From the IMG/VR virus record IMGVR_UViG_2531839482_000004: a stretch of DNA of 34,661 nucleotides, one strand, 5' to 3'. Below the pieces are notes generated by a model. It worked only from the letters and a program-made list of their open reading frames with translations. It had not been told where the DNA came from and searched no databases. Below are positions 2,420 to 24,351 of this stretch, one piece after another. A program made the position numbers and the translations under genes. The stretch is from a virus. Its lineage: Duplodnaviria; Heunggongvirae; Uroviricota; Caudoviricetes. Position 1 is the stretch's first letter, and each line of letters opens with the position of its first letter.

Positions 2420-2642
2420 TGTTTGAGTTTAATATGGCAGAACTTCTTCGCCACCGCTGGGGGCGTCTGCGCTTATATCGTTTCCCCGGTTCTGTTTTGA
2501 CCGATTACCGAATACTGAAGAATTACGCCAAAACACTGACAGGAGCAGGAGTATGAAGTCAGAGATAACAATCAACTAATACTGTTTTGTTGATTTTTGC
2601 TTGTAATTGGCGTTCTGGTCTGAGTTTTTGTGGAGTAAGTTG

Positions 2643-3026
2643 ATGCGTGATATTCAGATGGTTCTTGAGCGTTGGGGAGCGTGGGCGGCTAATAATCATG
2701 AAGATGTGACCTGGTCGTCCATTGCCGCCGGTTTTAAGGGATTAATTCCTTCAAAAGTAAAATCTCGCCCGCAATGTTGTGACGATGACGCGATGATCAT
2801 TTGCGGGTGCATGGCCCGTCTGAAAAAGAACAACAGCGATTTGCACGATTTATTAGTAGATTATTATGTAGTCGGTATGACATTCATGTCACTGGCAGGG
2901 AAGCATTGCTGCTCTGATGGTTATATCGGGAAAAGGTTACAAAAGGCTGAGGGCATAATTGAAGGGATGTTAATGGCATTAGATATCCGGTTAGAGATGG
3001 ATATCGTTGTTAATAACTCTAATTAA
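2643..3026 (+). CDS. quuD: late-gene antiterminator Q (DLP12 QuuD-like)
   Basis: [34 protein letters not shown]...[18 protein letters not shown] matches recalled QuuD; ATG 2643 has GGAG 9 nt upstream (track ORF starts earlier at TTG 2607). Confidence 0.85.
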
Positions 3027-3214: not shown

Positions 3215-4297
3215 TTAGAACTGGTAAACCATACCTACAGCAACGATATCATCGGTAGCAACGCCAGATGCTTTCGTGAAATCGCTCTTATCAATCAGGT
3301 TGATTTTGTAGTCAACAAAAGTGGACATATTTTTGTTGAAGTAATAGGTTGCACCTACATCAACATATTCAACCAGGTCCTGATCACCCCAAACACCCAA
3401 GTCTTTTCCTTTAGAATGCAGGTAAGCAACGGATGGACGCAGGCCGAAGTCGAACTGATATTGTGCAACAGCTTCGAAGTTTTGTGCTTTGTTGGCAATA
3501 TGGTTATTACCAAAAACAGTCATGTTCTGGGTTTCAGAATAGGTGGTGGCCAGATAGATGTTGTTCGCATCATATTTCAGACCAGCTGCCCATACTTCAG
3601 CATTTTGACCAGAAGCATTCAGACCGTTGTTACCGTAGATAACCTGATTATTAGTGCGATCAGATTTAGCATAGGTTGCACCCACGCCGAATCCTTCATA
3701 CTCATAAGTAGTTGAGAAACCGAAACCATCGCCATTAGCTTCAGTTACTTCATTTCGGTCATTTTTGCCCTGATACTGAGCTGCAAAGTTCAGGCCATCA
3801 ACCAGACCAAAGAAGTCGTTGTTACGATAAGTTGCAACACCTGTGGTGCGACCAGTCATGAATACATCTGTTTGGGTCCAGGTATCGCCACCGAATTCTG
3901 GCAGAACGTCAGTCCACGCACCGATGTCGTATGCTACACCGTAGTTACGGCCGTAATCGATTGAGCCGTAGTCACCGAATTTCAGGCCTGCAAATGCAAG
4001 ACGGGTTTTGTCTTTGGAGGAACCTTGAGATTCAGCGCGGTTGCCTTTGAATTCATATTCCCACTGACCGAAACCAGTCAGTTGATCGTTGATTTGGGTT
4101 TCACCTTTGAAGCCAAGACGGGCATAAGTAGTATCACCATCATCTGCATCATTAGAGGAGAAGTAGTGCTTAGCATTAACTTTCCCGTACAGATCCAGCT
4201 TGTTACTGTCTTTATTATAAATTTCAGCTGCCTGAGCAGACATCGCCATCAGTACTGATGCAGCTACAGCAGAAATTGCCACTGTTAATTTTTTCAT
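3215..4297 (-). CDS. nmpC: outer membrane porin, OmpC/NmpC family (intact)
   Basis: 360-aa ORF with signal peptide [23 protein letters not shown], porin motifs and C-terminal ...VGMVYQF; opposite strand to the phage late genes, as for nmpC in DLP12. Confidence 0.9.
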
Positions 4298-5101: not shown

Positions 5102-5598
5102 TGCCTCCATCATTACGAAAAGCCGTTGCTGCTGCTATTGGTGGCGGAGCAATTGCTATAGCATCAGTGTTAATCACTGGCCCAAGTGGTAACGATGGTC
5201 TGGAAGGTGTCAGCTACATACCATACAAAGATATTGTTGGTGTATGGACTGTATGTCACGGGCATACAGGAAAAGACATCATGCTCGGTAAAACGTATAC
5301 CAAAGCAGAATGCAAAGCCCTCCTGAATAAAGACCTTGCCACGGTCGCCAGACAAATTAACCCGTACATAAAAGTTGATATACCGGAAACAACGCGCGGC
5401 GCTCTTTACTTGTTCGTTTACAACGTGGGCGCTGGCAATTTCAGAACATCGACGCTTCTTCGCAAAATAAACCAGGGCGATATCAAAGGCGCATGTGATC
5501 AGCTACGTCGCTGGACATATGCTGGCGGTAAGCAATGGAAAGGTCTCATGACTCGTCGTGAGATTGAGCGTGAAATCTGTTTGTGGGGTCAGCAATGA
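5101..5598 (+). CDS. rrrD: SAR endolysin (lysozyme with N-terminal signal-anchor-release segment)
   Basis: 165-aa ORF; hydrophobic Gly/Ala-rich N-terminus ([20 protein letters not shown]) followed by lysozyme-like domain; ATG overlaps holin stop (TAATG). Confidence 0.85.
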
Positions 5599-6056
5599 AC
5601 AGAGTAACCGCGATTATCTCCGCTCTGGTTATCTGCATCATCGTTTGCCTGTCATGGGCTGTTAATCATTACCGTGATAACGCCATTACCTACAAAGCCC
5701 AGCGCGACAAAAATGCCAGAGAACTGAAGCTGGCGAACGCGGCAATTACTGACATGCAGATGCGTCAGCGTGATGTTGCTGCGCTCGATGCAAAATACAC
5801 GAAGGAGTTAGCTGATGCGAAAGCTGAAAATGATGCTCTGCGTGATGATGTTGCCGCTGGTCGTCGTCGGTTGCACATCAAAGCAGTCTGTCAGTCAGTG
5901 CGTGAAGCCACCACCGCCTCCGGCGTGGATAATGCAGCCTCCCCCCGACTGGCAGACACCGCTGAACGGGATTATTTCACCCTCAGAGAGAGGCTGATCA
6001 CTATGCAAAAACAACTGGAAGGAACCCAGAAGTATATTAATGAGCAGTGCAGATAG
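5595..6056 (+). CDS. rzpD: i-spanin Rz
   Basis: [23 protein letters not shown]... N-terminal TM then coiled-coil periplasmic domain; matches recalled DLP12 RzpD. Confidence 0.88.
5815..5997 (+). CDS. rzoD: o-spanin Rz1 lipoprotein, embedded in Rz in the +1 frame
   Basis: [24 protein letters not shown]... lipobox LVVVGC, proline-rich; entirely inside the Rz coding region in another frame. Confidence 0.88.
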
Positions 6057-6087
6057 AGCTGCCCATATCGATGGGCAACTCATGCAA

Positions 6088-6381
6088 TTATTGTGAGCAA
6101 TACACACGCGCTTCCAGCGGAGTATAAATGCCTAAAGTAATAAAACCGAGAAATCCATTTACGAATGTTTGCTGGGTTTCTGTTTTAACAACATTTTCTG
6201 CGCCGCCACAAATTTTGGCTGCATCAACAGTTTTCTCCTGTCCAATTCCCGAAACGAAGAAGTGATGGGTGATGGTTTCCTTTGGTGTTACTGCTGTCGG
6301 TTTGTTTCCAACAGTAAACGTCTGTTGAGCACATCCTGTAATAAGCATTGCCAGAGCGGCAGAAAACAACATTTTTTTCAT
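6088..6381 (-). CDS. borD: Bor lipoprotein (serum-resistance moron)
   Basis: MKKMLFSAALAMLITGCAQQTFTV...ARVYCSQ, 97 aa with lipobox LITGC; near-identical to lambda Bor; ATG at 6381. Confidence 0.88.
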   Translation of the reverse strand: MKKMLFSAALAMLITGCAQQTFTVGNKPTAVTPKETITHHFFVSGIGQEKTVDAAKICGGAENVVKTETQQTFVNGFLGFITLGIYTPLEARVYCSQ

Positions 6382-6743
6382 CTTATTATCCTGCATTGTT
6401 AAAAACGGCAGAATCCTATGTGACAACAATTAAACGATAGTTAAATGGATTGATGAAAATTAAAACTATATAGGTGTACGCTCAGACTATTGGAGGAAGT
6501 TGGGGACACTCAGAATCCTGTGGAATGAAATAAACCGGTCTATCCGTCTATTACCCTTTTAGCTGCGCTGTATCGTCGCCGTATTCCCGCATTAACCATG
6601 ACCGTAGCCCGACGGGGAATTCCTTCTGCGTGAGTGTGCGGGAATAATCAAAAACGATGCACACCGGGTTTTACTGTGCTGACAGACGCAGGGTTACCCT
6701 CATAGTCGCTTTTCCGGTGCGATGGTGGAAGAAACCGGGATGT

Positions 6744-6938
6744 TCATCCATCATCACTTTGGATTGATGTATATGCTCTCTTTTCTGACGTTAGTCTCCG
6801 ACGGCAGGCTTCAATGACCCAGGCTGAGAAATTCCCAGACCCTTTTTGCTCAAGAGCGATGTTAATTTGTTCAATCATTTGGTTAGGAAAGCGGATGTTG
6901 CGGGTTGTTGTTCTGCGGGTTCTGTTCTTCGTTGACAT
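6744..6938 (-). CDS. small ribbon-helix-helix-like protein (DLP12 YlcI-like, DUF3950)
   Basis: 64-aa ORF MSTKNRTRRTTTRNIRFPNQMIEQINIALEQKGSGNFSAWVIEACRRRL...; resembles recalled YlcI located between bor and the terminase genes in DLP12. Confidence 0.5.
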   Translation of the reverse strand: MSTKNRTRRTTTRNIRFPNQMIEQINIALEQKGSGNFSAWVIEACRRRLTSEKRAYTSIQSDDG

Positions 6939-7106
6939 GAGGTTGCCCCGTATTCAGTGTCGCTGATTTGTATTGTCTGAAGTTGTTTTTACGTTAAGTT
7001 GATGCAGATCAATTAATACGATACCTGCGTCATAATTGATTATTTGACGTGGTTTGATGGCGTAGATGCACGTTGTGACATGTAGATGATAATTATTATC
7101 ATTTTT

Positions 7107-7326
7107 CGGGTCCTTTCCGGCGATCCGACAGGTTACGGGGCGGCGACCTCGCGGGTTTTCGCTATTTATGAAAAATTTCCGGTTTAAGGCGTTTCCGTTC
7201 TTCTTCGTCATAACTTAATGTTTTTATTTAAAATACCCTCTGAAAAGAAAGGAAACGACAGGTGCTGAAAGCGAGCTTTTTGGCCTCTGTCGTTTCCTTT
7301 CTCTGTTTTTGTCCGTGGAATGAACA
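7107..7326 (+). other. helper prophage cos site (cosQ, cosN, cosB)
   Basis: gggtcctttccggcgatccgacaggttacg / GGGCGGCGACCT / cgcgggttttcgctatttatgaaaa... matches the lambda genome termini; cosN 12-nt cohesive end GGGCGGCGACCT at 7138-7149, followed by cosB R-elements (gtttccgttc, aaaggaaacgacagg, tgtcgtttcctttctc) up to the Nu1 start. Confidence 0.92.
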
Positions 7327-7846
7327 ATGGAAGTCAACAAAAAGCAGCTGGCTGACATTTTCGGTGCGAGTATCCGTACCATTCAGAACTGGCAGGAACA
7401 GGGAATGCCCGTTCTGCGAGGCGGTGGCAAGGGTAATGAGGTACTTTATGACTCTGCCGCCGTCATAAAATGGTATGCCGAAAGGGATGCTGAAATTGAG
7501 AACGAAAAGCTGCGCCGGGAGGTTGAAGAACTGCGGCAGGCCAGCGAGGCAGATCTCCAGCCAGGAACTATTGAGTACGAACGCCATCGACTTACGTGTG
7601 CGCAGGCCGACGCACAGGAACTGAAGAATGCCAGAGACTCCGCTGAAGTGGTGGAAACCGCATTCTGTACTTTCGTGTTGTCGCGGATCGCAGGTGAAAT
7701 TGCCAGTATTCTCGACGGGCTCCCCCTGTCGGTGCAGCGGCGTTTTCCGGAACTGGAAAACCGACATGTTGATTTCCTGAAACGGGATATTATCAAAGCC
7801 ATGAACAAAGCAGCCGCGCTGGATGAACTGATACCGGGGTTGCTGA

Positions 7847-7872
<26 letters not shown>
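7327..7872 (+). CDS. nu1: terminase small subunit Nu1
   Basis: 181-aa translation matches recalled lambda gpNu1 except for one or two substitutions. Confidence 0.95.
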
Positions 7873-11553
<3,681 letters not shown>

Positions 11554-13270: not shown

Positions 13271-13546
13271 ATGTCGATGTACACAACCGCCCAGCTGCTG
13301 GCGGCAAATGAGCAGAAATTTAAGTTTGATCCGCTGTTTCTGCGTCTCTTTTTCCGTGAGAGCTATCCCTTCACCACGGAGAAAGTCTATCTCTCACAAA
13401 TTCCTGGACTGGTAAACATGGCGCTGTACGTTTCGCCAATTGTTTCCGGTGAGGTTATCCGTTCCCGTGGCGGCTCCACCTCTGAATTTACGCCGGGTTA
13501 TGTCAAGCCGAAGCACTTAGCATGGCTTTCTGAGGCTTTCGTGTAG
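13271..13546 (+). pseudogene. E: major capsid protein gpE, N-terminal fragment (codons 1-82) interrupted by island insertion
   Basis: MSMYTTAQLLAANEQKFKFDPLFLRLFFRESYPF...TPGYVKPKH matches lambda gpE 1-82, then reads into island DNA (LAWLSEAFV*) and stops at 13546. Confidence 0.92.
13506..13515 (+). repeat. attL core AGCCGAAGCA (left island junction inside E)
   Basis: Identical 10-mer occurs at 24486-24495 at the other junction; sequence outside the pair is contiguous lambda E. Confidence 0.75.
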
Positions 13547-13678
13547 TTGCTGGTTTTTACACTTAATCTTTTGATAATAAAGAATAAGTTTATCTGGCGC
13601 TTTCACTGAATTTTCCTCGTTATCTGTGTGTTGCAATCATCTCTGTATTGCAGCTTGTATTGCTTTTTGGGGCTAAAA

Positions 13679-14914
13679 ATGGCTGGCGAGAACAAACTGA
13701 GCGACAAAGCGCTTAAAGGATATCTGGGGAAACCCAGAGAAAAGCAGATCACCATTGCTGATGGAAAGGGGCTTTCTATTCGTGTGAGTACTAAAGGGGC
13801 TGTGAGCTTTGTTTTCTTCTACAGGTTAGCAGGTGGCCGGGCTGCTCCGGTCTGGCTAACGTTGGGTAAATATCCTGATATGTCACTCAAACAGGCAAGG
13901 GAAAAGCGCGACGAGTGCCGTGGTTGGTTGGCTGACAAACGTGATCCGCGTATCCAGATTAAGATTCAGGCTGAAGAACGCTTAAAGCCGGTCACAGTGG
14001 AGGATGCACTAAATTACTGGTATGAAAATTACTGTAAGGTGCGTCGTAAAACTCATGCTGTAACGCTTGGCAGATTTCGAAAGCATATCTTTCCCTATAT
14101 CGGTCATTTGCCCGTAAATGACACTCACCTATATGAATGGCTGGACTGTTTTGACCGAATTAAACGTAATGCACCAGTTATGGCGGCGTATGTTTTTTCT
14201 GACACTAAATTAGCTCTTCGTTTTTGTCGGGTACGCCAGTACGCGACGTGTGATGCTTTAAAGGATTTGCGCATGAGTGATGTGGGGCAGATTGCAGGTA
14301 AGCGGGATCGGGTTCTGGATGAAGCCGAACTGGGCCAGCTCTGGAAGGCAATTTTTGTCGAGCCTGATTTAAAACTAATGTCTGAATACACGCGAAAAAT
14401 GTTTGTGCTTTGTACAGTATTTGGATGTCGAATGAGTGAAGCCCGATTATCTGAATGGAGTGAATGGGATCTCGAAAGTTGGGTTTGGACTGTACCAAAA
14501 GATCACTCAAAAACTGGTGTTGAAATCGTCAGACCAGTACCTGAAATTCTACGACAGTGGGTAACGGATGTTCACGAAGAGACAAAACATACTGGTTATG
14601 TGCTGGGAAGTCTGCGAATTAGAGAAAGCGTAAGCAAGATTGGGGGGAAAATCGGTAAACGTTTGGGCCATGAAAAACAATGGTCACTACACGACCTTAG
14701 AAGAACGCTATCTACTCATCTAAGTGATCTCGGTGTTGAATTTTATGTAGTAGAACAACTGTTAGGCCATGCGCTACCTGGCGTGGCAGGGGTTTACAAC
14801 AGGAGTACGTTTATGGCTAAAAAACTGGATGCTCTGGAACTCTGGACTACATATCTCAATAGCATCGCAGCTGCTGATTCAAAAGTGACAATCCTCAAAC
14901 AAAAGGCTGGTTAA
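13679..14914 (+). CDS. int: tyrosine integrase, P4-type with N-terminal arm-binding domain
   Basis: N-terminus LSDKALKGYLGKPREKQITIADGKGLSIRVS...LGKYPDMSLKQAREKRDE (DUF4102-like); C-terminal catalytic region with HDLRRT and LGH...GVY motifs; first gene inside the left junction. Confidence 0.88.
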   Translation: MAGENKLSDKALKGYLGKPREKQITIADGKGLSIRVSTKGAVSFVFFYRLAGGRAAPVWLTLGKYPDMSLKQAREKRDECRGWLADKRDPRIQIKIQAEERLKPVTVEDALNYWYENYCKVRRKTHAVTLGRFRKHIFPYIGHLPVNDTHLYEWLDCFDRIKRNAPVMAAYVFSDTKLALRFCRVRQYATCDALKDLRMSDVGQIAGKRDRVLDEAELGQLWKAIFVEPDLKLMSEYTRKMFVLCTVFGCRMSEARLSEWSEWDLESWVWTVPKDHSKTGVEIVRPVPEILRQWVTDVHEETKHTGYVLGSLRIRESVSKIGGKIGKRLGHEKQWSLHDLRRTLSTHLSDLGVEFYVVEQLLGHALPGVAGVYNRSTFMAKKLDALELWTTYLNSIAAADSKVTILKQKAG

Positions 14915-14915
14915 C

Positions 14916-15143
14916 ATGAAAAAAATGGCAATTGTTGATAAAAAGGGTCTGGAGTACATTCCTAACATTGACCGAATGATCCGTGAGAAAGAATGTCGGG
15001 AGCTAACCACTCTTGCGAACAGCACACGCTGGAAGCTGGAGAAGGAAGGAAAATTTCCTAAGCGGATCAAGATTGGCGCTACTGCGGTAGCTTATCGTCT
15101 CTCCGAAGTTCAGGCATGGATTAAGGGAGAATGGAGTAATTAA
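14916..15143 (+). CDS. alpA: AlpA-family HTH regulator / excisionase-like protein
   Basis: 75 aa; ATG overlaps int stop; ...IKIGATAVAYRLSEVQAWIKGE resembles the AlpA HTH pattern; position immediately after int as in E. coli PICIs and P4-like elements. Confidence 0.75.
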   Translation: MKKMAIVDKKGLEYIPNIDRMIREKECRELTTLANSTRWKLEKEGKFPKRIKIGATAVAYRLSEVQAWIKGEWSN

Positions 15144-15161
15144 ATAATAAGGTATTTCGAT

Positions 15162-15983
15162 ATGACAATGTGTGTTATTTGGAAGTCAGTTGATGGAACT
15201 ATTTATGCCGCCACAGATTCTCGACTGAGCTTTGAAGAAAAAAAGTTAGATCGTTGCGTTAAAATATCCCGAATCACATGTCTTTTACATGAGCCTAGTG
15301 ATGCAGTAGATACAAGTAAGATACTTGTTGATAAGCGTGAGATTGCTACATTATTCTGTGGAGGCTTTACAAATGCCTATATCATCAAGGAGAGCCTTAC
15401 TGAGATTTTAAATAAAATAGTTCTCATGAGGGAATACTCCGGCGTGCCCTTTTCGGAAATTATAGATATAGCGTTTTCCATTTATGAAGATACATCAAGA
15501 GATATGTTTGCATCATTAATGGACCAACGATTTGGATGTGTTTTTTACATGATAAGTTACTGCCCTGTATATAAGGAAATGCAAGCATTTAAATTTGAAT
15601 TCAAAATAAATGAAAACGGTATTAACTATTATAAATCTAAACTTTTTGAAGATCGTAACTATGAGGTTAATGGAAGTGGGGTGAGGTACTTGGAACAAAA
15701 TCATCGTATTGAAGATCTAGTTAAAGAAGCTTATCAGAAGAATAAATACACACCACTTCTAGATATACTTGAGTCCGTAATTAATGATGACGACTGTGAC
15801 TCTGTTGGAGGTGCAATGCAATACATTTCATGTAATAAAGATAGACTAAAATTGTGTTGTCATATGTTATTTGAAGAAAATAATCATAAGTATATGAAAG
15901 CTGGGGTGGACTTAAATGAACTCAATGAGAAGTTTATACCTTCTGGTTTGTTTTTTGAGACAGATGCAATCATCAAAAGATAA
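15162..15983 (+). CDS. hypothetical protein, AT-rich cargo gene (possible Ntn-hydrolase-like fold)
   Basis: 273-aa ORF with markedly lower GC than flanks; N-terminus MTMCVIWKSVDGTIYAATDSRL loosely resembles the proteasome/HslV-type N-terminal nucleophile region, with Cys where HslV has Thr. Similarity is weak and unverified. Confidence 0.5.
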   Translation: MTMCVIWKSVDGTIYAATDSRLSFEEKKLDRCVKISRITCLLHEPSDAVDTSKILVDKREIATLFCGGFTNAYIIKESLTEILNKIVLMREYSGVPFSEIIDIAFSIYEDTSRDMFASLMDQRFGCVFYMISYCPVYKEMQAFKFEFKINENGINYYKSKLFEDRNYEVNGSGVRYLEQNHRIEDLVKEAYQKNKYTPLLDILESVINDDDCDSVGGAMQYISCNKDRLKLCCHMLFEENNHKYMKAGVDLNELNEKFIPSGLFFETDAIIKR

Positions 15984-16292
15984 ACGATAACCGACTTTGA
16001 TTGTGATAATTTTATCAAGATTATGATGAATGCTGCAGTATATCTAACATGCTGCAGTTAACTCAATTTGTATTATCGCTAATATTTTTAATAACAAGGA
16101 TGTTTATTGCTTTTTTATTTGAGAGTGAACGTCTAACCATTGTTGTTCTTAGTTCTCATGGAGAGATTGGAGCTTAAAATACGCAATGTTTTGAAATCAG
16201 CGCAACTATATTCCGTAATTGTTCTTTGTCGTTCTTGCGTGGCACGGTGATACACCTCTCATGTCGGTTGTTTTTTTGAACGCAGAAACATA

Positions 16293-16320
16293 AAACAAAG
16301 GCGACCGGGATGGTCGCCAG
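16293..16320 (-). terminator. rho-independent terminator of the leftward island operon
   Basis: ggcgaccgggatggtcgcc hairpin; on the minus strand it is followed by tttgtttt, downstream of the 16387 stop. Confidence 0.5.
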
Positions 16321-16386
16321 TGGCATAACACTAAAATTGAGCGTATTCAGAATACCAAGTGTCGGCTGGTGGACAATGGAATCAGT

Positions 16387-16743
16387 TCAATATTTAGGTG
16401 GTTCAACAAGAGCGTTTATCATTGCTCTCAAATTATCGCGAACACTTATCCAAGTCTGTTCTGCTCGTTCTAACTCATTAGTGTACAGCTTTAATGTTTT
16501 ATCTATGCCATATGTGGCTATTAAATTTATAGCTTCTTGTAACTTTTCGGGATTATTCCTTCTTGGGGGAGTGAATATACCGCGGATTTTTCCGGTAATT
16601 AAAGCTTTACGGTGTCTACATAGAATACCTTTACTTCCTGCTGGACAATTACAAGTCATGATTAGCGAGCCAGAATCGTTTGATACAGTGACTATGTATA
16701 CATCCAAACTACTGCTACTTGTTGCGAAGAATTCGTATTTCAT
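16387..16743 (-). CDS. SWIM-type zinc-finger protein, hypothetical
   Basis: 118-aa ORF with CxC-x7-CxH motif (TCNCPAGSKGILCRH); AAGGAG 8 nt upstream of ATG 16743; preferred over the overlapping plus-strand ORF 16310-16750. Confidence 0.6.
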   Translation of the reverse strand: MKYEFFATSSSSLDVYIVTVSNDSGSLIMTCNCPAGSKGILCRHRKALITGKIRGIFTPPRRNNPEKLQEAINLIATYGIDKTLKLYTNELERAEQTWISVRDNLRAMINALVEPPKY

Positions 16744-16770
16744 GTGTTAGCTCCTTGACTTCAATTATTC

Positions 16771-16965
16771 TTATCCTTTTGGTTCAATACCGCGCCGTAG
16801 CAGCTCTTTGCGCCCTAACTCTTTAAGCCAGTTGGCAAGGCTTACCCCATCGTTACTGGCTTCGTTATCAAACTGCTCCTTCAATTCAGGAACTATGCGC
16901 ATATGGAACGGTGGGGCCTTTCCTGTGCCTTTTTGTTTTTTATCGCGCTTAATAACCGTTGACAT
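16771..16965 (-). CDS. small ribbon-helix-helix-like DNA-binding protein (candidate island regulator)
   Basis: 64 aa; ...FHMRIVPELKEQFDNEASNDGVSLANWLKELGRKEL has a beta-strand/helix/helix pattern like Arc/MetJ-type proteins; start codon abuts a palindromic operator-like site. Confidence 0.55.
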   Translation of the reverse strand: MSTVIKRDKKQKGTGKAPPFHMRIVPELKEQFDNEASNDGVSLANWLKELGRKELLRRGIEPKG

Positions 16966-17026
16966 GTGTACACCTATAGCGTTATGTTTTTATTCGATAG
17001 GTGTACACCTTAACATGTGTGCATTT
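16959..17026. promoter_or_regulatory. divergent control region with inverted repeats (operator candidate)
   Basis: GTGTACACCTAT (16966-16977) and its exact reverse complement ATAGGTGTACAC (16997-17008), 19-bp spacer; related ACATGTGT boxes at 16962 and 17014; TTGACA at 16959-16964. Confidence 0.5.
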
Positions 17027-17300
17027 AAAAACGCAACGCCCCGCAGTGCGGGAACACATGCAGGGCGTCTAACCACCAACGATAGCAACAGTATCGAGGT
17101 AGCTATGAGAAATCATCCCACACACCCGCAAGGGCGGGACTCGCACAACCTGAATAAATTCACTTGGCGCTTTATCGCCCTGAGTGCGGCTAAACCGCGC
17201 ATGCTTACCATCGTGGTCACCAGCGAGCAGGAAGACCGCCAGCAATCCCCAACTGGCTGCGTGATGATATTCGCCGCCCGTATTCGTCAGGAGGTGTGCC

Positions 17301-17525
17301 ATGAATGATCTTTATTTTAAAGTGCTGACACATGCTGAAAACGCGCTCGTTTGTGGCAAAAATATGCGAGAAATCTTATCAACCTGGCTTGATGGGACAA
17401 CAAATGCGGAACACGATGAACGGGATGCTAATTTAGCTGGAGCGTTAATTACGTTACTTGATCCTGTCATCAAAGAGCTGGATGAAGCTATAAAAATACA
17501 CGACCAGAGCTATACCGGAGAATAA
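17301..17525 (+). CDS. hypothetical protein
   Basis: 74-aa ORF, AGGAGG 8 nt upstream of ATG; first gene of the rightward operon leading to the primase. Confidence 0.6.
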   Translation: MNDLYFKVLTHAENALVCGKNMREILSTWLDGTTNAEHDERDANLAGALITLLDPVIKELDEAIKIHDQSYTGE

Positions 17526-17528
17526 AAA

Positions 17529-17816
17529 ATGAAAAATAAATTTTCTGGCTTTATTGCCAGCGGTCAAACTCATTCAAAAATCAGCCTTGGGGATATTTTC
17601 AAAGACAGCTATGGCTATCGGGTAAAGATTATTTCGGTTGATGATCGTCGTGTCTCTTATTTGCGTGATGGTTATGATTTTGAATGTGTTATGCCGCGTC
17701 AGCAGTTCGAAAGAGATTTCATTCTGGTAAAAAATTGCAAGACAGATAATCAGAGGCGTGCCGCAGGCTATATCCGTAAAATTCGGGCAATGTTAGTTGC
17801 CGGAGGTAACAAATGA
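17529..17816 (+). CDS. hypothetical protein
   Basis: 95-aa ORF, GGAGA upstream; tightly coupled to the primase gene (ATGA overlap). Confidence 0.6.
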   Translation: MKNKFSGFIASGQTHSKISLGDIFKDSYGYRVKIISVDDRRVSYLRDGYDFECVMPRQQFERDFILVKNCKTDNQRRAAGYIRKIRAMLVAGGNK

Positions 17817-19633
17817 AACGTGCTCCGAACTTAAAATACCAACCGCGCGACAAAATGACGGAAGTCATCATTTTTGCTGGCAGTGATGCCTGGAGCCATG
17901 CAAAAGAATGGAATGAATGGGCAGGTAAGCATATTGCAGCAGATGATACACCACCAGTCATTCTGGGTACGGAACAACTGGAAAACCTGGATGATATGCA
18001 AATTATCGATGAAGGCCGTCATTATGTGCGTGTTTATCGTGCCGGAAAGATTGCAGAGAAAAGTCTGACGAAGGTTGCGACATTACTTGCTATTGCAGGC
18101 GTAAAGGAAGCACGTTGTTACCGTAGCTTTGTTGATCGAGAGCCTGAAGACTGGACTCCGCGCCTTGTCGGCCTAAAAGCTGAAGCGGAGCATGGGGAAA
18201 GTCTGGTGATTGAACTGCCAGTGAAGAAGGCAGAGCGCAAAAATGACGAGCGTGCTTCATCTTTGGCGTTGAATCAGATGGGGGCCAGCCAGCGCGGTGA
18301 AGTTCTCCTTGCACATTACGGCGGTGAACTGGCAATCAATGCCGACTCTGACACCGTTCATCATTACAACGGCGTTGTATGGGAGCCGGTTCAGGATAAA
18401 GAGTTACAGCGTGCTATGGCGCAGATTTTCATTGATGCGGAGATCAGCTATTCGCAGAACGCTATTAAATCGGCGGTAGATACCATGAAGTTAAGTTTGC
18501 CTGTAATGGGGAATACAGCCCGTAACCTGATTGGATTCAGTAACGGGGTATTTGATACCAGAACTGGTAATTTTCGGGAGCATAACAAAAACGACTGGTT
18601 GTTAATTGCCAGTGAATTACCTTTCAGCCCACCAGCAGAGGGGGAAACGCTGGCAACACATGCGCCGAATTTCTGGAAGTGGTTGCGCCGTTCGGTGGCT
18701 GAGAATGACCGCAAGGCAGATCGCGTACTGGCGGCATTATTCATGGTGCTGGCGAACCGGTACGACTGGCAGTTATTCATTGAGGTAACAGGGCCGGGGG
18801 GAAGTGGTAAAAGTGTGATGGCGGAGATTTGCACCATGCTGGCGGGTAAGGCTAATACAGTATCAGCAAGCATGAAGGCGCTGGAAGATGCAAGGGAACG
18901 TGCGTTAGTGGTTGGCTTTTCGCTGATTATCATGCCGGATATGACCCGCTACGCTGGTGATGGGGCAGGGATTAAGGCCATTACAGGCGGTGACAAGGTG
19001 GCAATTGACCCGAAACACAAAGCCCCCTATTCAACGCGTATTCCGGCAGTAGTGCTGGCGGTTAACAATAACGCCATGTCATTCAGTGACCGCAGCGGGG
19101 GGATCTCACGTCGTCGGGTGATATTCAATTTTTCGGAAGTTGTACCGGAGAACGAACGCGATTCGATGCTGGCGGAAAAAATAGAAGGTGAGCTGGCGGT
19201 AGTGATTCGTCATCTGCTTACAAGGTTTGCTGATCAGGACGAAGCCAGACGCCTGTTATATGAGCAGCAGAAATCTGAAGAAGCACTGGCGATAAAGCGA
19301 GAGGGGGATTCGCTGGTGGACTTCTGCGGTTATCTCATGGCATCGGTAATGTGTGATGGCCTGTTAGTGGGTAATGCTGAAATTGTGCCATTCAGCCCAC
19401 GCAGGTATCTCTATCATGCCTATCTGGCTTATATGAGGGCACATGGGTTTGGTAAACCTGTAACACTGACGCGCTTCGGTAAAGATATGCCGGGGGCAAT
19501 GGCGGAATATGGCAGGGGGTATATGAAACGGAAAACGAAGCACGGTTTGCGTTCAAACGTGACACTGACGGAGGAATCAGAAGACTGGATGCCATCATGT
19601 GTATCGGTCACTAATGACGATAGCAAAAATTAA
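17813..19633 (+). CDS. primase/helicase-type replication protein (P4/PICI pri-rep family, D5-like NTPase)
   Basis: 606 aa; Walker A GPGGSGKS; overall architecture like P4-family primase C-terminal/helicase proteins; GGAGG RBS. Confidence 0.8.
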   Translation: MKRAPNLKYQPRDKMTEVIIFAGSDAWSHAKEWNEWAGKHIAADDTPPVILGTEQLENLDDMQIIDEGRHYVRVYRAGKIAEKSLTKVATLLAIAGVKEARCYRSFVDREPEDWTPRLVGLKAEAEHGESLVIELPVKKAERKNDERASSLALNQMGASQRGEVLLAHYGGELAINADSDTVHHYNGVVWEPVQDKELQRAMAQIFIDAEISYSQNAIKSAVDTMKLSLPVMGNTARNLIGFSNGVFDTRTGNFREHNKNDWLLIASELPFSPPAEGETLATHAPNFWKWLRRSVAENDRKADRVLAALFMVLANRYDWQLFIEVTGPGGSGKSVMAEICTMLAGKANTVSASMKALEDARERALVVGFSLIIMPDMTRYAGDGAGIKAITGGDKVAIDPKHKAPYSTRIPAVVLAVNNNAMSFSDRSGGISRRRVIFNFSEVVPENERDSMLAEKIEGELAVVIRHLLTRFADQDEARRLLYEQQKSEEALAIKREGDSLVDFCGYLMASVMCDGLLVGNAEIVPFSPRRYLYHAYLAYMRAHGFGKPVTLTRFGKDMPGAMAEYGRGYMKRKTKHGLRSNVTLTEESEDWMPSCVSVTNDDSKN

Positions 19634-19644
19634 ACTTATGGAAT

Positions 19645-19800
19645 AACTGTTCACCAAACTATTCACCGTTCACCTTTTTGATTATTTATTGAGCTTCAAG
19701 GGTGAACAGTGGTGAACAGTTGGTGAATAGTTTTTGTGAAACTGTTCACCCATTAACATTATGAATTAAAAGAGAAAATATCAAAAGGTGAACAGGTGAA
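19645..19800. repeat. iteron cluster, candidate island origin of replication
   Basis: About nine copies of GGTGAACAG / CTGTTCACC (and GGTGAAT variants) in both orientations around an AT-rich core (19756-19786), immediately downstream of the primase gene. Confidence 0.75.
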
Positions 19801-19846
19801 GGGTTAAAACGCAAAAATTTTAATTTACTGCTGTGAGATAAAGCCT

Positions 19847-20092
19847 ATGACAGCGAAGCACACAAAAAAATCACAATCGCACGCCCTTGATTTGACGGAA
19901 CACTGGTTAAGGGTGTCGATAAAAATCATCGACCGCAACGCCGGGGAAGGATACGCGAAAGCACATCCCGAACTGATTAGCGCATTCATGACAACGGCGG
20001 CTGCAAACTTTGCCACTCTGACCGAACGGGAGATTGCTGAAGCGGAGGAAGTGACAACAATCAATATTAAGTCCGGAGAGCAGGCAGCATGA
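19847..20092 (+). CDS. hypothetical protein
   Basis: 81-aa ORF between the origin and the ssb-like gene; no family recognised. Confidence 0.5.
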   Translation: MTAKHTKKSQSHALDLTEHWLRVSIKIIDRNAGEGYAKAHPELISAFMTTAAANFATLTEREIAEAEEVTTINIKSGEQAA

Positions 20093-20538
20093 CGGCGCAA
20101 ATATCAGTTTACGGGCGGTTGGTGGACGACCCGCAGACAAAACAGACCAGCAAGGGCACCCCCATGACGCTGGCGCGTATGGCGGTATCACTGCCCTGCA
20201 GTCAGTCGGATGACGGTCAGGCGACGATGTGGTTATCTGTCCTGGCGTTTGGCAGACAAGCCGACGCGCTGGCAAAGCATCACAAAGGCGAACTCCTGAG
20301 CGTGGCGGGTAATATGCAGGTGAGCCAGTGGACTGGACAGAACGGTGAAACGCGGCAGGGCTGGCAGGTTATCGCAGACAGCGTAATCAGTGCGCGAACG
20401 GTGCGACCGGGCGGCAAAAAAGGTCAACAGGGTCAGGCTACTGACGCACTGAACAGAGCAAAACAACAGGTAGATCAGCAAGGAAGCCATCCACCAGTGG
20501 GAGATAATGAGCAATGGGGAGATGATATTCCGTTTTAA
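20089..20538 (+). CDS. ssb: single-stranded DNA-binding protein (SSB-like)
   Basis: 149 aa; OB-fold-like N-terminus, Gly/Gln-rich linker, C-terminal acidic tail ...WGDDIPF as in SSB proteins. Confidence 0.75.
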   Translation: MTAQISVYGRLVDDPQTKQTSKGTPMTLARMAVSLPCSQSDDGQATMWLSVLAFGRQADALAKHHKGELLSVAGNMQVSQWTGQNGETRQGWQVIADSVISARTVRPGGKKGQQGQATDALNRAKQQVDQQGSHPPVGDNEQWGDDIPF

Positions 20539-20755
20539 ATATTGCCAATAAAAAAGGCCGGAAAAAAATAAATTTTCCGGCATGCTACATAAATCCCGAC
20601 CAAAGGGAGTGAAGATATTAACACTAATTATCCGCGCTGAAGTTGTTATCCCAAAACTTTATACAACATTGCACTCGGTTGCATGTATTCGCATGACAAA
20701 TATCGGTGATAGCATATATCCACAATTATTTTTAATGAATGCAAAGAGGATGCGT

Positions 20756-21796
20756 ATGGTTGATTTATATTCGCCTACCCAGCTTGTACAGGTGGTTAAT
20801 GCTGTAGATGTACAAAAACAACTAAATGCGTTGTTTACCAGTTTGTTTTTTACTCGCTCGGTAATGTTTGAATCGCGCGATATTATTCTTGATACAATCG
20901 ACGATCCAAATATCCCAATTGCAGCGTTTTGTTCTCCTATGGTGGGTAGTAAAGTTTCACGTGACGAAGGGTACGAATCAAAAACAATTCGTCCAGGCTA
21001 TATGAAGCCGAAAAGCAGCATTGATCCAAATAAGTTAGCTGTGCGCCCTGCTGGTGTATCACCTGAGCAATACAATGCTTTTGGAGCGCGTAATATTAAA
21101 GTTAAACAGGCGATTGTAAATCAGGCTAAATCTATTCGTGCACGTATTGAATGGCTTGCCGTTCAGGCAATCACAACGGGGAAAAATATCATTGAGGGCG
21201 ATGGTATTGAACGTTATGAGCTGGACTGGAATATTAAACCACAAAATATCATCACTCAGTCTGGCGGTGCTGAGTGGTCAGGTAAGGATAAAGAAACTTT
21301 TGATCCAAATGATGATATTGAGAGCTACGCAGAATTTAGTGAGGGCGTCACTAATATCATCATTATGGGCGGTAATGTATGGAAGAAATACCGTTCATTC
21401 AGAGCGATAAAAGAGGCTCTGGATACCCGTCGTGGTTCTAATTCCGAACTGGAAACGGCCCTTAAAGACCTTGGTGATTCGGTGAGTTTTAAAGGGTATA
21501 TGGGCGATGTTGCGATTGTTGTATACAGCGGGCGTTATACCGACGAGGACGGAACTGAAAAACATTTCCTTGATCCTGATTTGATGGTGCTTGGCAATAC
21601 GGCTCTTCAGGGGATTGTCGCCTATGGCGGTATTCAGGATCCGGAGCTAATCCGAATGGGGCTGACTAAAGCCGAACTTGCACCGAAAAACTATATTGTG
21701 CCTGGTGATCCGGCTATTGAATATGTGCAGACACATTCAGCACCACAGCCAATACCGGCCCGCATCAATCGTTTTGTTACCGTTCGCATTGGCTAA
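20756..21796 (+). CDS. island-encoded major capsid protein, divergent paralog of lambda gpE
   Basis: 346 aa; shares RPGYMKPK, NIITQSGGAEWSGKDKETFDPNDDIESYA, ALDTRRGSNSELETALKDLG, AIVVYSG, MVLGNT with helper gpE but is diverged throughout; AGAGGA RBS 6 nt before ATG 20756. Confidence 0.88.
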   Translation: MVDLYSPTQLVQVVNAVDVQKQLNALFTSLFFTRSVMFESRDIILDTIDDPNIPIAAFCSPMVGSKVSRDEGYESKTIRPGYMKPKSSIDPNKLAVRPAGVSPEQYNAFGARNIKVKQAIVNQAKSIRARIEWLAVQAITTGKNIIEGDGIERYELDWNIKPQNIITQSGGAEWSGKDKETFDPNDDIESYAEFSEGVTNIIIMGGNVWKKYRSFRAIKEALDTRRGSNSELETALKDLGDSVSFKGYMGDVAIVVYSGRYTDEDGTEKHFLDPDLMVLGNTALQGIVAYGGIQDPELIRMGLTKAELAPKNYIVPGDPAIEYVQTHSAPQPIPARINRFVTVRIG

Positions 21797-21805
21797 GGGG
21801 GAGCA

Positions 21806-22147
21806 ATGGCTACTCATTACACTGAACTCATGGCTGGCACTGAAGCACTGGTGACTACGCTGGGGATATTTTCAGCTAATAAAGGGGTAATTCCTGCATT
21901 TACGCCACTGATGCAGGAAGATGCAACAGGTGCACTGGTGGTATGGGATGGTTCGAGCGTAGGTAAAGCGGTTTATGTTTCCGCTGTACAAATCGACACC
22001 GCGAAAAAAACACAGGCTCAGGTCTATAAGACAGGTGTCTTAAATGTTGATGCTCTGAACTGGCCTGAGTCTGTAAAAGAACTGTCAGTAAAGATTGCAG
22101 CGTTTGTTGGCTCAGGTATTTCTGTTCAGCCGCTGGCTCGTGTGTAA
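21806..22147 (+). CDS. island-encoded decoration protein, divergent paralog of lambda gpD
   Basis: 113 aa; shares TPLM, LVVWDG, YKTGV, WPE, AAFVGSGISV with gpD; lies downstream of the capsid gene (order E-like then D-like, opposite to lambda). Confidence 0.75.
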   Translation: MATHYTELMAGTEALVTTLGIFSANKGVIPAFTPLMQEDATGALVVWDGSSVGKAVYVSAVQIDTAKKTQAQVYKTGVLNVDALNWPESVKELSVKIAAFVGSGISVQPLARV

Positions 22148-22158
22148 AGGGGGATACA

Positions 22159-22542
22159 ATGCAGAATGATTACAATGACCTTAAGCCAATTGCCGAAATG
22201 ATGTACCCGAATCCAGCTGTAGAGGAATTAAAAGCTATCGCTGACAAAATGTGTTTAAGCGAGCGCCTTGTTGATATGAATCAGGTGATGGAAATTACAA
22301 CCCTGAGTCGGCGTACACTGCTAAACCTTGAGGCTAGTGGAGAGTTCCCGGAGCGTGTGCAGGTTACGGAAGGGCGTAAGGCCTGGTATTTAAGTGAAGT
22401 GATCGACTGGATAAATAATATTCCTCGCGCTTCTGAATATTGCCGCGTACCTGTCCCAAAAAAGCCAGATGCGGCGCTATGCCTCAAGATTGAGCGTGTA
22501 CGCCGCAATGCACGGGATGGTCGCTATAAGCTGATTGGTTGA
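22159..22542 (+). CDS. AlpA/MerR-like HTH protein with N- and C-terminal extensions
   Basis: 127 aa; core MEITTLSRRTLLNLEASGEFPERVQVTEGRKAWYLSEVIDWI fits the AlpA-type HTH pattern. Confidence 0.6.
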   Translation: MQNDYNDLKPIAEMMYPNPAVEELKAIADKMCLSERLVDMNQVMEITTLSRRTLLNLEASGEFPERVQVTEGRKAWYLSEVIDWINNIPRASEYCRVPVPKKPDAALCLKIERVRRNARDGRYKLIG

Positions 22543-22565
22543 TGAAATTAGGGCCCGCTCTGGCT

Positions 22566-22787
22566 GGCGGGTCCTTTCCGGCGATCTGACAGGCTACGGG
22601 GCGTCAGGCGCGCAGTTTTTCGCTATTTGTGAAAATTTTCCTGTTTAAGGCGTTTCCGTTCTTCTTCGCCGTAACTTAATGTTTTTATTAAAAACACCCC
22701 CTAAAAAGAAAGGAAACGACAGGTGCTAAAAACAGGCTTTTTGGCCTCTGTCGTTTCCTTTCTCTGGTTTTGTCCGTGGAATGAACA
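22566..22787 (+). other. island cos site (cosQ and cosB conserved, cosN divergent)
   Basis: Aligns base-for-base with helper cos 7107-7326, but the cosN position reads GGGCGTCAGGCG (helper GGGCGGCGACCT), with further changes just downstream. Confidence 0.8.
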
Positions 22788-22853
22788 ATGGAAGCCAACA
22801 AAAAGCAGCTGGCTGACATTTTCGGTGCGAGTATCCGTACCATTCAGAACTAG
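22788..22853 (+). pseudogene. Nu1-paralog N-terminal segment ending in an in-frame amber codon (codon 22)
   Basis: MEANKKQLADIFGASIRTIQN then TAG where helper Nu1 has TGG (Trp). Confidence 0.7.
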
Positions 22854-22865
22854 CAGGAGCAGGGA

Positions 22866-23339
22866 ATGCCCGTTCTGCGAGGCGGTGGCAAGGGTAATGA
22901 GGTGCTTTATGACTCTGCCGCCGTCATAAAATGGTATGCCGAAAGGGATGCTGAAATTGAGAACGAAAAGCTGCGCCGGGAGGTTGAAGAACTGCGGCAG
23001 GCCAGCGAGGCAGATCTCCTGCCAGGGACTATTGAGTATGAACGCCATCGACTTACGCGTGCGCAGGCCGACGCACAGGAACTGAAGAATGCCAGCGAAA
23101 CAGGTGAGGTAATTGACACTGCATTTGCGACTTATGCTTTGTCGAAATTAACTGGGGAAGTTGGAGCAATCATTGATAGTCTTCCACTTGCGATCTGTCG
23201 ACAGTTTCCTGGCATGGAAAAACGGTATCAGGACTTCATTAAGATGGAGGTCAGTAAAGCATTTATTCGAGCTTACCAGATCTCAGATAACATTCCAGAT
23301 ATGGCTGAAAGGTATATCAAGGATAATCAGCGAAGTTAA
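22866..23339 (+). CDS. N-terminally truncated terminase small-subunit paralog (Nu1 residues 27-end; divergent C-terminal domain)
   Basis: Starts at the codon equivalent to Nu1 Met27, where a GAA->GAG change creates a GGAG Shine-Dalgarno 6 nt upstream; first ~80 aa near-identical to Nu1, last ~75 aa replaced by AT-rich divergent sequence. Confidence 0.7.
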   Translation: MPVLRGGGKGNEVLYDSAAVIKWYAERDAEIENEKLRREVEELRQASEADLLPGTIEYERHRLTRAQADAQELKNASETGEVIDTAFATYALSKLTGEVGAIIDSLPLAICRQFPGMEKRYQDFIKMEVSKAFIRAYQISDNIPDMAERYIKDNQRS

Positions 23340-23445
23340 AACAAATGAAACCATAGGTAGGAAGAGTGCTTAGGTGGTTCTTTGTTGCTTAAAAGTCGCC
23401 AGTAAAACTGGCGATAGATTTTATTTGTCAAAAGCATTTGACCTT

Positions 23446-24351
23446 TTAAGGTAGTGGTACTATGGATATTTTTCTGTCGTTCCCAAATGAACTTTTAAAT
23501 AATTTCGCTCTTGGATACATCTTAACTAGTGATGCGACTTCATCGAACTCGCTGGCATCAAAAAGAGGACCAAGTATTACAGATTTTAACTCAAAAGGGT
23601 GAAATTTTAAGTCGCTATATTGACCAGTGCTATTTGGCCTAGCGTAGGTTGAAATTCTCCACTCTCTTTCATATGCCCATTCTTCTGTTTTTATGAATAT
23701 TATCTCATTATTGATATATTCAATTGACTTATTGTCTGGCATGAAAAGCAACTCGGCCATCCCTTCAGCAGTGTGAGTTAGAGGCATTTCATCTGTGTAT
23801 TTCATAGGTTTGGCTATTAACCAAGCGCTATCCAGAAAGTCTACACAATCAAATTCGATAACTATACCTTTATATTTATCGGCATAGTGATTCCACATAG
23901 GAGTGATTATAGGGCTCTCAGATAAACACAAAATCCTTCTGTTATTAAGCATTCCTCGCCAGACATCTTTCATTTCTTGTATTGCCGCAGGAGCGCCAAT
24001 CCCAACTGGTGGAATGTTTACCATTTCTTGAAATCTTTCAATTAATCCTGCGGGTATGCCTAAAGGAAATGACTTTTGGAAATCACTTAGCATTGTTCTA
24101 ATTCTAGGGTTTAAATTTTGTATGTCTTCTCTGGGGGTAATCAACTCCGCTATTAACTTGCGGGCTAAAGCTTTGCCAATATTAATTTCGTTAATACCAG
24201 GCATAACTTCTCTTGGAACATCAAAAGGGTCATTAAATAGGACCGGAGAACTCCATCTAAGGCTGCATGAATCAAGAACAATTTTCGCGGTATTCAACGA
24301 CATATACTTATAAAATGTTGAGCGTTCATGCATTCTGTTGGGTGAGCGCAT
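23446..24351 (-). CDS. hypothetical protein, DUF2971-like, AT-rich cargo gene
   Basis: 301 aa; N-terminal FYKYMSL...LRWSSPVLFNDPFD and WAYEREWRI motifs as recalled for DUF2971 proteins; low GC; GAGGA RBS; last gene before the right junction. Confidence 0.55.
   Translation of the reverse strand: MRSPNRMHERSTFYKYMSLNTAKIVLDSCSLRWSSPVLFNDPFDVPREVMPGINEINIGKALARKLIAELITPREDIQNLNPRIRTMLSDFQKSFPLGIPAGLIERFQEMVNIPPVGIGAPAAIQEMKDVWRGMLNNRRILCLSESPIITPMWNHYADKYKGIVIEFDCVDFLDSAWLIAKPMKYTDEMPLTHTAEGMAELLFMPDNKSIEYINNEIIFIKTEEWAYEREWRISTYARPNSTGQYSDLKFHPFELKSVILGPLFDASEFDEVASLVKMYPRAKLFKSSFGNDRKISIVPLP

Follow-up and report, generated by a model that had tools for sequence, protein, structure and literature searches.

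Why should a single prophage carry its cos–nu1 region twice? The window analysed here, a stretch of 34,661 nt, is the late region of a lambda-like prophage, as judged from its lambda-like ORF lengths and Pfam domains, and an earlier note had described in it two highly similar direct copies of cos–nu1, one belonging to the helper phage and the other lying in an island of about 11 kb. An ungapped alignment of positions 7107–7640 (copy A, plus strand) with 22568–23101 (copy B, plus strand) confirms that description, with 34 mismatches in 534 nt (93.6 % identity) at an offset of 15,461 nt; the coordinates given earlier were exact for copy A and 1–2 nt off for copy B (22566–23100). The repeat is far above chance, and an assembly artefact is ruled out because the two-copy layout is also present in independent complete genomes (CP062853 and PSJ-16). 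In what we consider the probable explanation, copy A is the helper's own cos–nu1 and copy B is the packaging module, partly helper-derived, of a helper-embedded PICI of the Eco567.11capE family. The arrangement has largely been described already, and it is the details of the packaging module that are modestly new.

The helper prophage and its embedded island

The genes of the helper run in the order Q, a porin moron, lysis genes, cos, nu1, A, W, B, C and D, and then from FI through the tail genes. Helper nu1 (7327–7872, plus strand) encodes a small terminase (TerS) of 181 aa (Pfam Phage_Nu1, E=1.9e-99) and the next gene is A (7847–9772), encoding the large terminase (TerL) gpA with its ATPase and nuclease domains. 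The major capsid gene E is found in two pieces, a 5′ fragment of about 80 codons (13271–13515, plus strand) that covers positions 1–78 of the Pfam Phage_cap_E profile, and a remainder that restarts at 24486 (24486–25276, plus strand; profile positions 94–328). Between them lies the island, 10,980 bp in length (13506–24485, plus strand), delimited by identical 10-bp att cores, AGCCGAAGCA, at 13506–13515 and 24486–24495. Joining the fragments at this core rebuilds an E ORF of 341 aa, with the lambda E sequence as reference.

The island consists, in order, of genes for a tyrosine integrase (int), AlpA, a D5-type primase, an SSB, an E-like capsid protein, a D-like protein and an AlpA-like helix-turn-helix (HTH) protein, followed by cos, a nu1 homologue that we refer to as nu1′, and a DUF2971 gene. 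The late module upstream of cos (20582–22542, plus strand) comprises the E-like capsid gene (20582–21796), the D-like gene (21806–22147) and the AlpA-family HTH gene (22159–22542), all on the plus strand; it stands at fixed offsets from cos in 37/37 islands and recurs in Citrobacter chromosomal PICIs. All annotated island genes lie on the plus strand, as does the late operon, except the cargo gene (23446–24351, minus strand), which belongs to DUF2971 and to the PADLOC candidate defence family PDC-S31 and occupies a slot between nu1′ and attR that holds other cargo in sister islands.

Helper-embedded PICIs are a known class, whose prototype Eco567.11capE resides in the capsid gene of prophage 50icd in E. 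coli NRG857c (Tommasini, Mageeney & Williams 2023, PMC10111431). In the published case the attachment site is a 10-bp identity block, E is unexpressed until the satellite excises, the 61-kb composite is over the lambda packaging limit, and satellite and helper have 258 bp at 90 % identity in common at cos, with terS lacking (PMC10111431). The island of the window has the same insertion site (E:Phage_cap_E:80, with the E fragments on either side), the same 10-bp att core, the same variant cosN beside a helper with lambda cosN, a composite of about 60 kb, and an integrase identical at 408 of 411 positions to that of 11capE in NRG857c. It follows the four-zone PICI layout (int/alpA, Bro, replication, late), with int, AlpA, D5-type primase, SSB and the E-like and D-like genes all present; these last two, without portal or protease, do not make it a capsid-forming PICI (cf-PICI), a kind that has the complete capsid-assembly set of capsid, portal, protease and connectors. 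Nucleotide identity to Eco567.11capE is 98.6–99.2 % over int–alpA, the replication zone and the capsid/D/HTH/cos block, and all that differs lies in the Bro zone or in the cargo downstream of cos. The prototype has about 240–258 nt in common with the helper cos (about 240 nt in our comparison of NRG857c, against 534 nt in the window), a 64-aa nu1 remnant and HEPN plus DUF262 cargo, unlike the full-length, amber-interrupted, chimeric nu1′ and the DUF2971 gene found here. By these comparisons the island is a cargo variant of the published Eco567.11capE and an ordinary member of its class; islands nearly identical to it are found in strains that are unrelated and in prophages of different context.

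The earlier note had further suggested that the composite exceeds the lambda packaging limit and that propagation of the helper is conditional on excision of the island, and both propositions stand. Whole-prophage length, one of the checks it had proposed, is 59,598 bp in the nearest complete genome (CP062853), where the composite is bounded by a 48-nt copy of the 3′ half of tRNA-Thr. The stronger reason for the helper to await excision is, however, that the island splits the capsid gene, which precise excision restores to a single ORF, rather than the matter of packaging size. The size limit, the dependence on excision and the restoration of E have all been published for the same island family (PMC10111431).

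A chimeric small terminase gene beside a variant cos

Placed by coordinates on the lambda cos layout (PMC9026076), the helper cos (7108–7303, plus strand) comprises cosQ (7108–7114), cosN (7138–7149, GGGCGGCGACCT), R3 (7190–7205), an inverted R2 (7245–7260) and R1 (7288–7303), and the island cos (22569–22764, plus strand) comprises cosQ (22569–22575), a variant cosN (22599–22610, GGGCGTCAGGCG), R3 (22651–22666), R2 (22706–22721) and R1 (22749–22764). In island and helper alike cosQ, GGGTCCT, stands 30 nt before cosN bp 1, exact R3, inverted R2 and R1 sequences occupy cos bp 53–68, 108–123 and 151–166, and the nu1 ATG falls at cos bp 190. Both sites keep the flanking CG dinucleotides, cosN bp 1–5 and all spacings, and the differences between them cluster around cosN, where 5 of the 12 bases differ (bp 6, 8, 9, 10 and 12).

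Each copy of the repeat is made up of a cos site and codons 1–105 of the adjoining gene, nu1 in copy A and nu1′ in copy B. On the left it begins at exactly cosQ, the 200 nt upstream having a background identity of 25 %; the 220 nt of non-coding cos are 89.5 % identical and nu1 codons 1–105 are 96.2 % identical; on the right it ends at the codons for AQADAQELKNA, after which identity falls to 50 % over the last 231 nt (77 codons) of nu1. In CP062853 the two copies differ at 19 of the 534 positions, 8 of them within the first 48 nt. Weak homology between helper and island continues past the repeat as far as the nu1 stop codons (7872 and 23339). This extension had gone unmentioned in the earlier note, as had an in-frame TAG in the island gene (22851–22853) and the five cohesive-end differences.

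Island nu1′ (22788–23339, plus strand; 183 codons) is not a simple duplicate of its neighbour: both copies are indeed cos–nu1 regions, but the island gene is both chimeric and interrupted by an amber codon. Its intact allele (183 aa; CP062853, WP_074514846.1) matches Pfam PF07471 over profile positions 1–162 (E=6e-84) and agrees with lambda TerS (PDB 6HN7 chain B) at 97/98 of residues 1–98, whereas over its C-terminal 80 residues identity to lambda Nu1 drops to only 40 %. DNA encoding this C-terminus is present at 99 % identity or more in 32 of 5,426 complete E. coli genomes, and the corresponding peptide has no match above 40 % identity among 50,697 phage records. Its relatives are the small terminases of Citrobacter and Klebsiella PICIs, at 70–87 % identity, among them the Citrobacter PICI TerS P0002 (73 %), in which the same type of C-terminus is joined to a different N-terminal DNA-binding domain. 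The P0002 gene belongs to a chromosomal PICI with the same capsid/D-like/HTH/cos/terS cassette, where cosQ is conserved, cosN is of the lambda type and cosB is unrelated. The alternative TerS proteins of sister E. coli islands were considered as a source for the C-terminus and rejected, the three C-terminal types being about 40 % identical to one another and the true relatives being those of Citrobacter and Klebsiella; the TerS-like proteins of islands with alternative cosB had no PDB match.

In its nucleotide sequence the island copy shows an identity of 0.91–1.0 to the helper from just right of cosN up to the AQADAQELKN codons, and beyond these it has 0.73–0.77 identity to the Citrobacter PICI against 0.59 to the helper. 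The product of nu1′ is accordingly a chimera of about 103 helper-type N-terminal residues and a PICI-type TerS C-terminus. On this evidence the repeat is probably the footprint of a replacement in which the satellite's cosB and the DNA-binding half of its TerS were swapped for those of the helper, and this exchange would account for the 534 nt that are now alike.

Satellites with a TerS homologue beside their own packaging site are familiar from the pac SaPIs and from terS-carrying E. coli PICIs (PMC6092414), and a Citrobacter island (L321) shows what we regard as the ancestral form of the cassette, its own DNA-binding domain being paired with its own cosB. In the window, by contrast, the gene is interrupted and its DNA-binding half is that of the helper, leaving the satellite without a specificity of its own. 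Another close parallel is EcCICFT073, a Gram-negative cos PICI with a lambda-like helper supplying TerS and TerL, conserved cosQ and cosN, and a TerS-related gene directly downstream of cos (PMC6092414, PMC6739421). There, however, cosB is without phage R elements and Rpp retargets TerS, while the present island has the helper's R3, R2 and R1 and it is cosN rather than cosB that differs. Redirection of the Rpp type is accordingly not indicated here, since cosB carries the three R sites and the match of nu1′ to RppC, over the DNA-binding domain, reaches only E=0.04. The HTH protein encoded upstream of cos was also considered as an Rpp and rejected, as it belongs to the AlpA family (PDB 8c3t). 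Nor does nu1′ have a cognate large terminase: it is followed by a terminator-like hairpin and then by the opposite-strand DUF2971 gene, with no gpA homologue in the island. Since a large terminase is encoded neither by this island nor by the sister islands examined, these islands depend on the TerL of a helper.

In the window the reading frame of nu1′ is broken by a TGG-to-TAG change at codon 22 (22851–22853), although it is intact in CP062853 and in some IMG/VR alleles. The exact TAG allele is carried by 17/32 carrier genomes, and TAG is also found in PSJ-16 and in several distinct IMG/VR alleles, which excludes a private mutation or a sequencing error; Rfam and tRNA scans of the window found nothing, and hence no suppressor tRNA is provided in cis. 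Downstream of the TAG is a candidate restart ORF of 157 aa that begins at Met27 (22866), has AGGAG-N6 upstream and still matches Phage_Nu1 (E=3.2e-64). Loss of the gene is common among its relatives. It is absent from 25 of 33 islands with full lambda-type cosB, most sister islands with the same cos having lost nu1′, exchanged it for cargo or kept just a stub, and Klebsiella nu1′ homologues are truncated or frameshifted. We read nu1′ as a gene in decay, redundant because the helper's Nu1 already reads the island cosB.

A rather unlikely alternative is that nu1′ is an active hijacking factor, in which the full-length chimera, or the 157-aa product from Met27 that would be without the helix-turn-helix, binds Nu1 or gpA and either favours packaging of the island or lowers helper yield, in the manner of Rpp in EcCICFT073 or Ppi in SaPIs. 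The spread of the TAG allele through half of the carriers, from diverse hosts, and its diversification into several alleles would fit such a role, as would the presence in every TAG copy of AGGAG 6 nt ahead of the Met27 ATG, which makes the allele compatible with a functional N-terminally truncated product. This AGGAG is nevertheless a polymorphism older than the TAG and common in ordinary nu1 genes (16/93 copies), so the notion that the stop codon and a new Shine–Dalgarno sequence arose together was rejected. The changes that followed the TAG (F138L, E142G and G34D) are non-synonymous, as in a pseudogene. Conservation of the C-terminal domain at 70–87 % across Citrobacter and Klebsiella PICIs speaks for a function, and Rpp is itself thought to be TerS-derived (PMC6739421), but the resemblance to Rpp is the faint DNA-binding-domain match mentioned above. 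The gene has been dispensed with altogether in most sister islands that share this cos, and since island cosB equals helper cosB a decoy would harm the island too.

Recombination and processing at the two cos sites

From the length of the repeat it had been argued that homologous recombination between the copies would delete A–W–B–C–D together with the left half of the island. A synthetic junction of this kind (helper upstream sequence, repeat, island downstream sequence) was found in none of 5,426 complete E. coli genomes, which hold 34 nu1′-type island copies, and the prediction is not borne out in this sample. PSJ-16 does contain a deletion, spanning gene A to the D-like gene of the island, but it is illegitimate and lies in a decayed Qin-like prophage. 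Such recombination as is visible appears to be sequence exchange or gene conversion, leaving mosaicism and homogenisation; the phage-type contig L135, for example, has helper-type flanks around a variant cosN.

It had likewise been suggested that two cleavable cos sites would lead concatemer processing to yield sub-genomic fragments. The two sites have the same orientation, and the helper-to-island interval of 15.46 kb, equal to 32 % of lambda length, is too short to be packaged in view of the lower packaging limit of lambda. In concatemers of EcCICFT073, which fill phage-sized heads, cos sites spaced by about 15 kb are skipped (PMC6092414). Only the opposite interval, from island to helper, which measures 44.06 kb in CP062853, is of packageable size: a molecule of about 44 kb could be packaged, with ends mismatched at 5 of 12 bases, and would miss everything from nu1 through the 5′ part of E as well as the left 9 kb or so of the island.

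A model for this situation exists in the two-cos lambda phages, in which two co-oriented cos sites likewise lie on one molecule, so that packaging can start at one and end at the other (Feiss et al. 2015, PMC4669245). Passive-prophage experiments in the same study showed that terminase does initiate and terminate at heterologous cos sites, termination needing cosQ and cosN but being independent of cosB, and that the ends may mismatch (PMC4669245). Those phages are engineered, and a 2-bp end mismatch already costs them a 4-fold loss of yield (PMC4669245), compared with the 5/12 bp that would be mismatched in this natural case.

These observations also bear on the proposal that the copies act mainly in cis, with RecA-mediated deletion and two cleavable cos sites breaking up composites that have not excised, the duplication itself thereby gating propagation of the helper. 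Directly oriented sequences of 534 nt at 94–96 % identity are a competent substrate for recombination, helper-type and island-type cos have visibly exchanged sequence, terminase can start at one cos and end at a heterologous one downstream (PMC4669245), and the island-to-helper interval is of packageable size. We nonetheless think the proposal improbable, given that no deletion junction accompanies any of the 34 nu1′-type copies, that the 15.5-kb interval is too short for cutting, that the split E and a composite of 59.6–61 kb fully explain the gating of the helper, and that most sister islands share only about 240 nt with the helper, which means that the long repeat is not conserved.

Cohesive-end alleles and the proposed packaging of the island

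The explanation that we prefer, a partly helper-derived packaging module, requires that helper terminase should act on the island's own cosN. Lambda genetics places constraints on cosQ, the flanking CGs and the left half of cosN, whereas variation at bp 7–12 is tolerated by TerL of lambda; the cosN of N15 differs from that of lambda at bp 9 and 12, and that of Gifsy-1 at bp 8, 9 and 11 (PMC4669245). Four of the five changes in the island cosN fall within the tolerant bp 7–12 and one, G to T at bp 6, lies outside it, in the left half, in which certain mutations are known to be harmful. Because cosQ, the CGs and bp 1–5 are kept and bp 7–12 are tolerant (PMC4669245), the island allele, its change at bp 6 apart, looks cleavable.

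All 37 exact 20-mer matches to the variant cosN lie in islands, and none of the 37 is followed by a large-terminase gene. The idea that it is exclusive to islands had nevertheless to be abandoned, as three phage-type contigs (L135, L179 and L198) carry the variant followed by lambda-type terminase genes, with Nu1 98–99 % and gpA 99 % identical to those of the helper; these loci lend independent support to the view that the allele is cleavable. Only one of these variant-cosN phage contigs has a complete gpA, and in it a single residue, S269G, is absent from 36 gpAs of lambda-cosN phages.

A broader view was obtained by using the HTH gene upstream of cos to sample islands, which avoids a bias towards any cos sequence and gave 77 usable islands. 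The commonest combination is variant cosN with lambda-type R3, R2 and R1 (33 islands, 8 of them with nu1′), followed by lambda cosN with an unrelated cosB (27), while variant cosN is joined to a partial lambda cosB in 8 and to an unrelated cosB in 7, and rare cosN alleles make up the other 2. Lambda cosN together with lambda cosB was found in none of the 77. Phage-type loci with lambda-type cosB, on the other hand, have lambda cosN in 52 copies and the variant in 3. Lambda cosN in the helper goes with the variant in the island in all four composites checked at sequence level (the window, CP062853, PSJ-16 and NRG857c), and at pattern level both cosN search patterns were matched in 4 IMG/VR contigs, whose lambda-cosN matches may be helper cos sites.

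Much of this association between cosN and cosB reflects shared ancestry, as most island cosB haplotypes are nearer to each other than to any phage haplotype. For the same reason a history of many independent cosB conversions, each sparing cosN, finds little support. Only haplotypes L001/L050, L049 and L117 are nearer to phage haplotypes, and in these, later exchange with phages seems to have brought in a new cosB and left cosN variant, the direction and number of such events being estimated from few haplotypes.

That the island cos is instead a non-functional relic that the helper is unable to cut, the island riding passively with the prophage, is very improbable, for although 5/12 cosN positions differ, including bp 6 in the sensitive left half, and the 11capE authors detected no helper virions (PMC10111431), cosQ, the flanking CGs, bp 1–5, R3/R2/R1 and their spacing are kept by all the lambda-cosB islands sampled, the variant cosN is used by phages whose gpA is essentially the same, and the composite is too long for intact packaging, yet near-identical islands have reached unrelated strains and different prophages.

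A working model of how the island came by its packaging module, and of how it uses it, can be put forward on these grounds. An ancestral PICI lineage would have possessed the capsid/D-like/HTH/cos/terS cassette, cosB and the TerS DNA-binding domain both being its own. In one sub-lineage the segment from right of cosN to about terS codon 103 would then have been exchanged for a helper-type cosB (R3-I1-R2-R1) and the Nu1 winged-helix and linker, with the native PICI C-terminal half of TerS retained. The composite's excision and replication, and the satellite's excision, upon induction are experimental findings in NRG857c (PMC10111431). For cleavage, packaging and multimer size, or copies per head, we infer the following course. 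After the composite has excised and replicated, the island would leave at the 10-bp core, restoring E and yielding a 10.98-kb circle, from which concatemers would be produced by means of the island's own primase and origin. The helper's Nu1–gpA terminase would then be recruited, Nu1 binding the R sites of the helper-type cosB and gpA nicking the island cosN. Underfilled heads would skip cos, and a head of lambda size would be full with about four units (43.9 kb, 90.6 % of lambda length), much as EcCICFT073 is packaged as multimers in full-sized heads (PMC6092414). Smaller shells built from the E-like and D-like proteins of the island might alter the number of units.

In the main, the window confirms a known class of satellite and its published consequence, namely that the helper can neither make capsids nor fit its head until the satellite leaves. 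What is new concerns the evolution of a satellite packaging module beside its helper, in which the DNA-binding half of TerS and cosB appear to have been swapped and the gene thereby made redundant to have decayed, and in which the cohesive-end allele differs from that of the helper in each of the four pairs checked and the predicted deletions are absent. It is conceivable, though we would not expect it, that satellites which have adopted the helper's cosB and TerS specificity are selected to keep different cohesive ends (5/12 positions), so that chromosomes cut at one site of each kind, and the joining of helper to satellite, would be non-productive; the cos/TerS-DNA-binding segment would then behave as a specificity cassette traded repeatedly between helper and satellite, with gene conversion stopping short of cosN. 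If the difference in ends is selected rather than inherited through linkage, it would add a new layer of discrimination between helper and satellite, beside the retargeting of cosB recognition by Rpp and the use of a satellite TerS with its own pac site.

Cargo and capsid genes of the island

The slot of the capE island that extends from cos and its chimeric TerS gene, nu1', to attR is a cargo hotspot. In the window it holds a DUF2971 gene (23446-24351, minus strand), which has a hit (E=2.5e-32) to PDC-S31, a candidate defence family of PADLOC, and is separated from the convergent nu1' gene by a terminator-like hairpin with a T-run (23395-23424). The same slot contains HEPN and DUF262 in Escherichia coli NRG857c, the carrier of the prototype island, a TIR-like ORF of 380 aa in locus L082, and different large ORFs in loci L044, L055 and L060.

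The island also encodes an E-like major capsid protein and a D-like decoration protein (20582-22147), which are ~45% and ~38% identical to E and D of the helper, respectively. The E-like protein is a 404-aa ORF in the window, and its RefSeq relatives are annotated at 346 aa. The direct repeat of 72% identity between 21391-21525 and 24874-25008 is plain homology between the E-like and E genes.

The helper prophage and a decayed composite

The helper prophage carries a moron, a 360-aa Gram-negative porin gene (3215-4297, minus strand; Porin_1, E=3.6e-152) that lies in a low-GC stretch with the Q antiterminator (2607-3026) on one side and the lysis genes on the other. Its TerS, Nu1, has a linker-region substitution that is private to it, with cysteine at residue 91 (codon 91, window position 7597), where lambda TerS (PDB 6HN7) and all of the island alleles have arginine.

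Decay can evidently affect a helper and its satellite jointly, as in strain PSJ-16 (NZ_AP027632.1, locus L199), where a remnant of the window's island lies within a decayed Qin-like cryptic prophage (5334-9651 of that locus). The remnant retains a partial D-like gene, an HTH gene, cos, nu1' with its TAG codon, DUF2971 and a 3' fragment of E, and a deletion has fused the island's D-like gene with A of the helper.

Terminase and cos variation in related elements

Islands with a cosB unrelated to that of lambda comprise L060, L090 and 34 others (loci within L040-L119), and two rare cosN alleles, GGGCGGAAGGCG and GGGCGGCTGACG, occur in this group. In the two sister capE islands of this kind that were examined, L060 and L090, a Phage_Nu1-family protein of 160-183 aa is encoded immediately after cos; its N-terminal domain differs from that of lambda, and no resemblance to RppC, the TerS-redirecting PICI protein, is detectable. 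These two islands may possess a satellite-specific TerS/cosB pair, separate from the Rpp system. In the Citrobacter chromosomal PICIs L321-L323 (9488-10664), homologues of two tail genes of lambda, Z and, with weak similarity, I, come after the TerS gene, a case of the late-gene capture described for that PICI group.

The variant cosN of the window's island, GGGCGTCAGGCG, is also found in three lambda-like, phage-type IMG/VR contigs (L135, L179 and L198), in which the rest of cos, nu1 and A are helper-type; the flanks in L135 are nearly identical in sequence to the window's helper. These contigs suggest that the cosN allele has moved between the satellite and helper pools, in one direction or the other.
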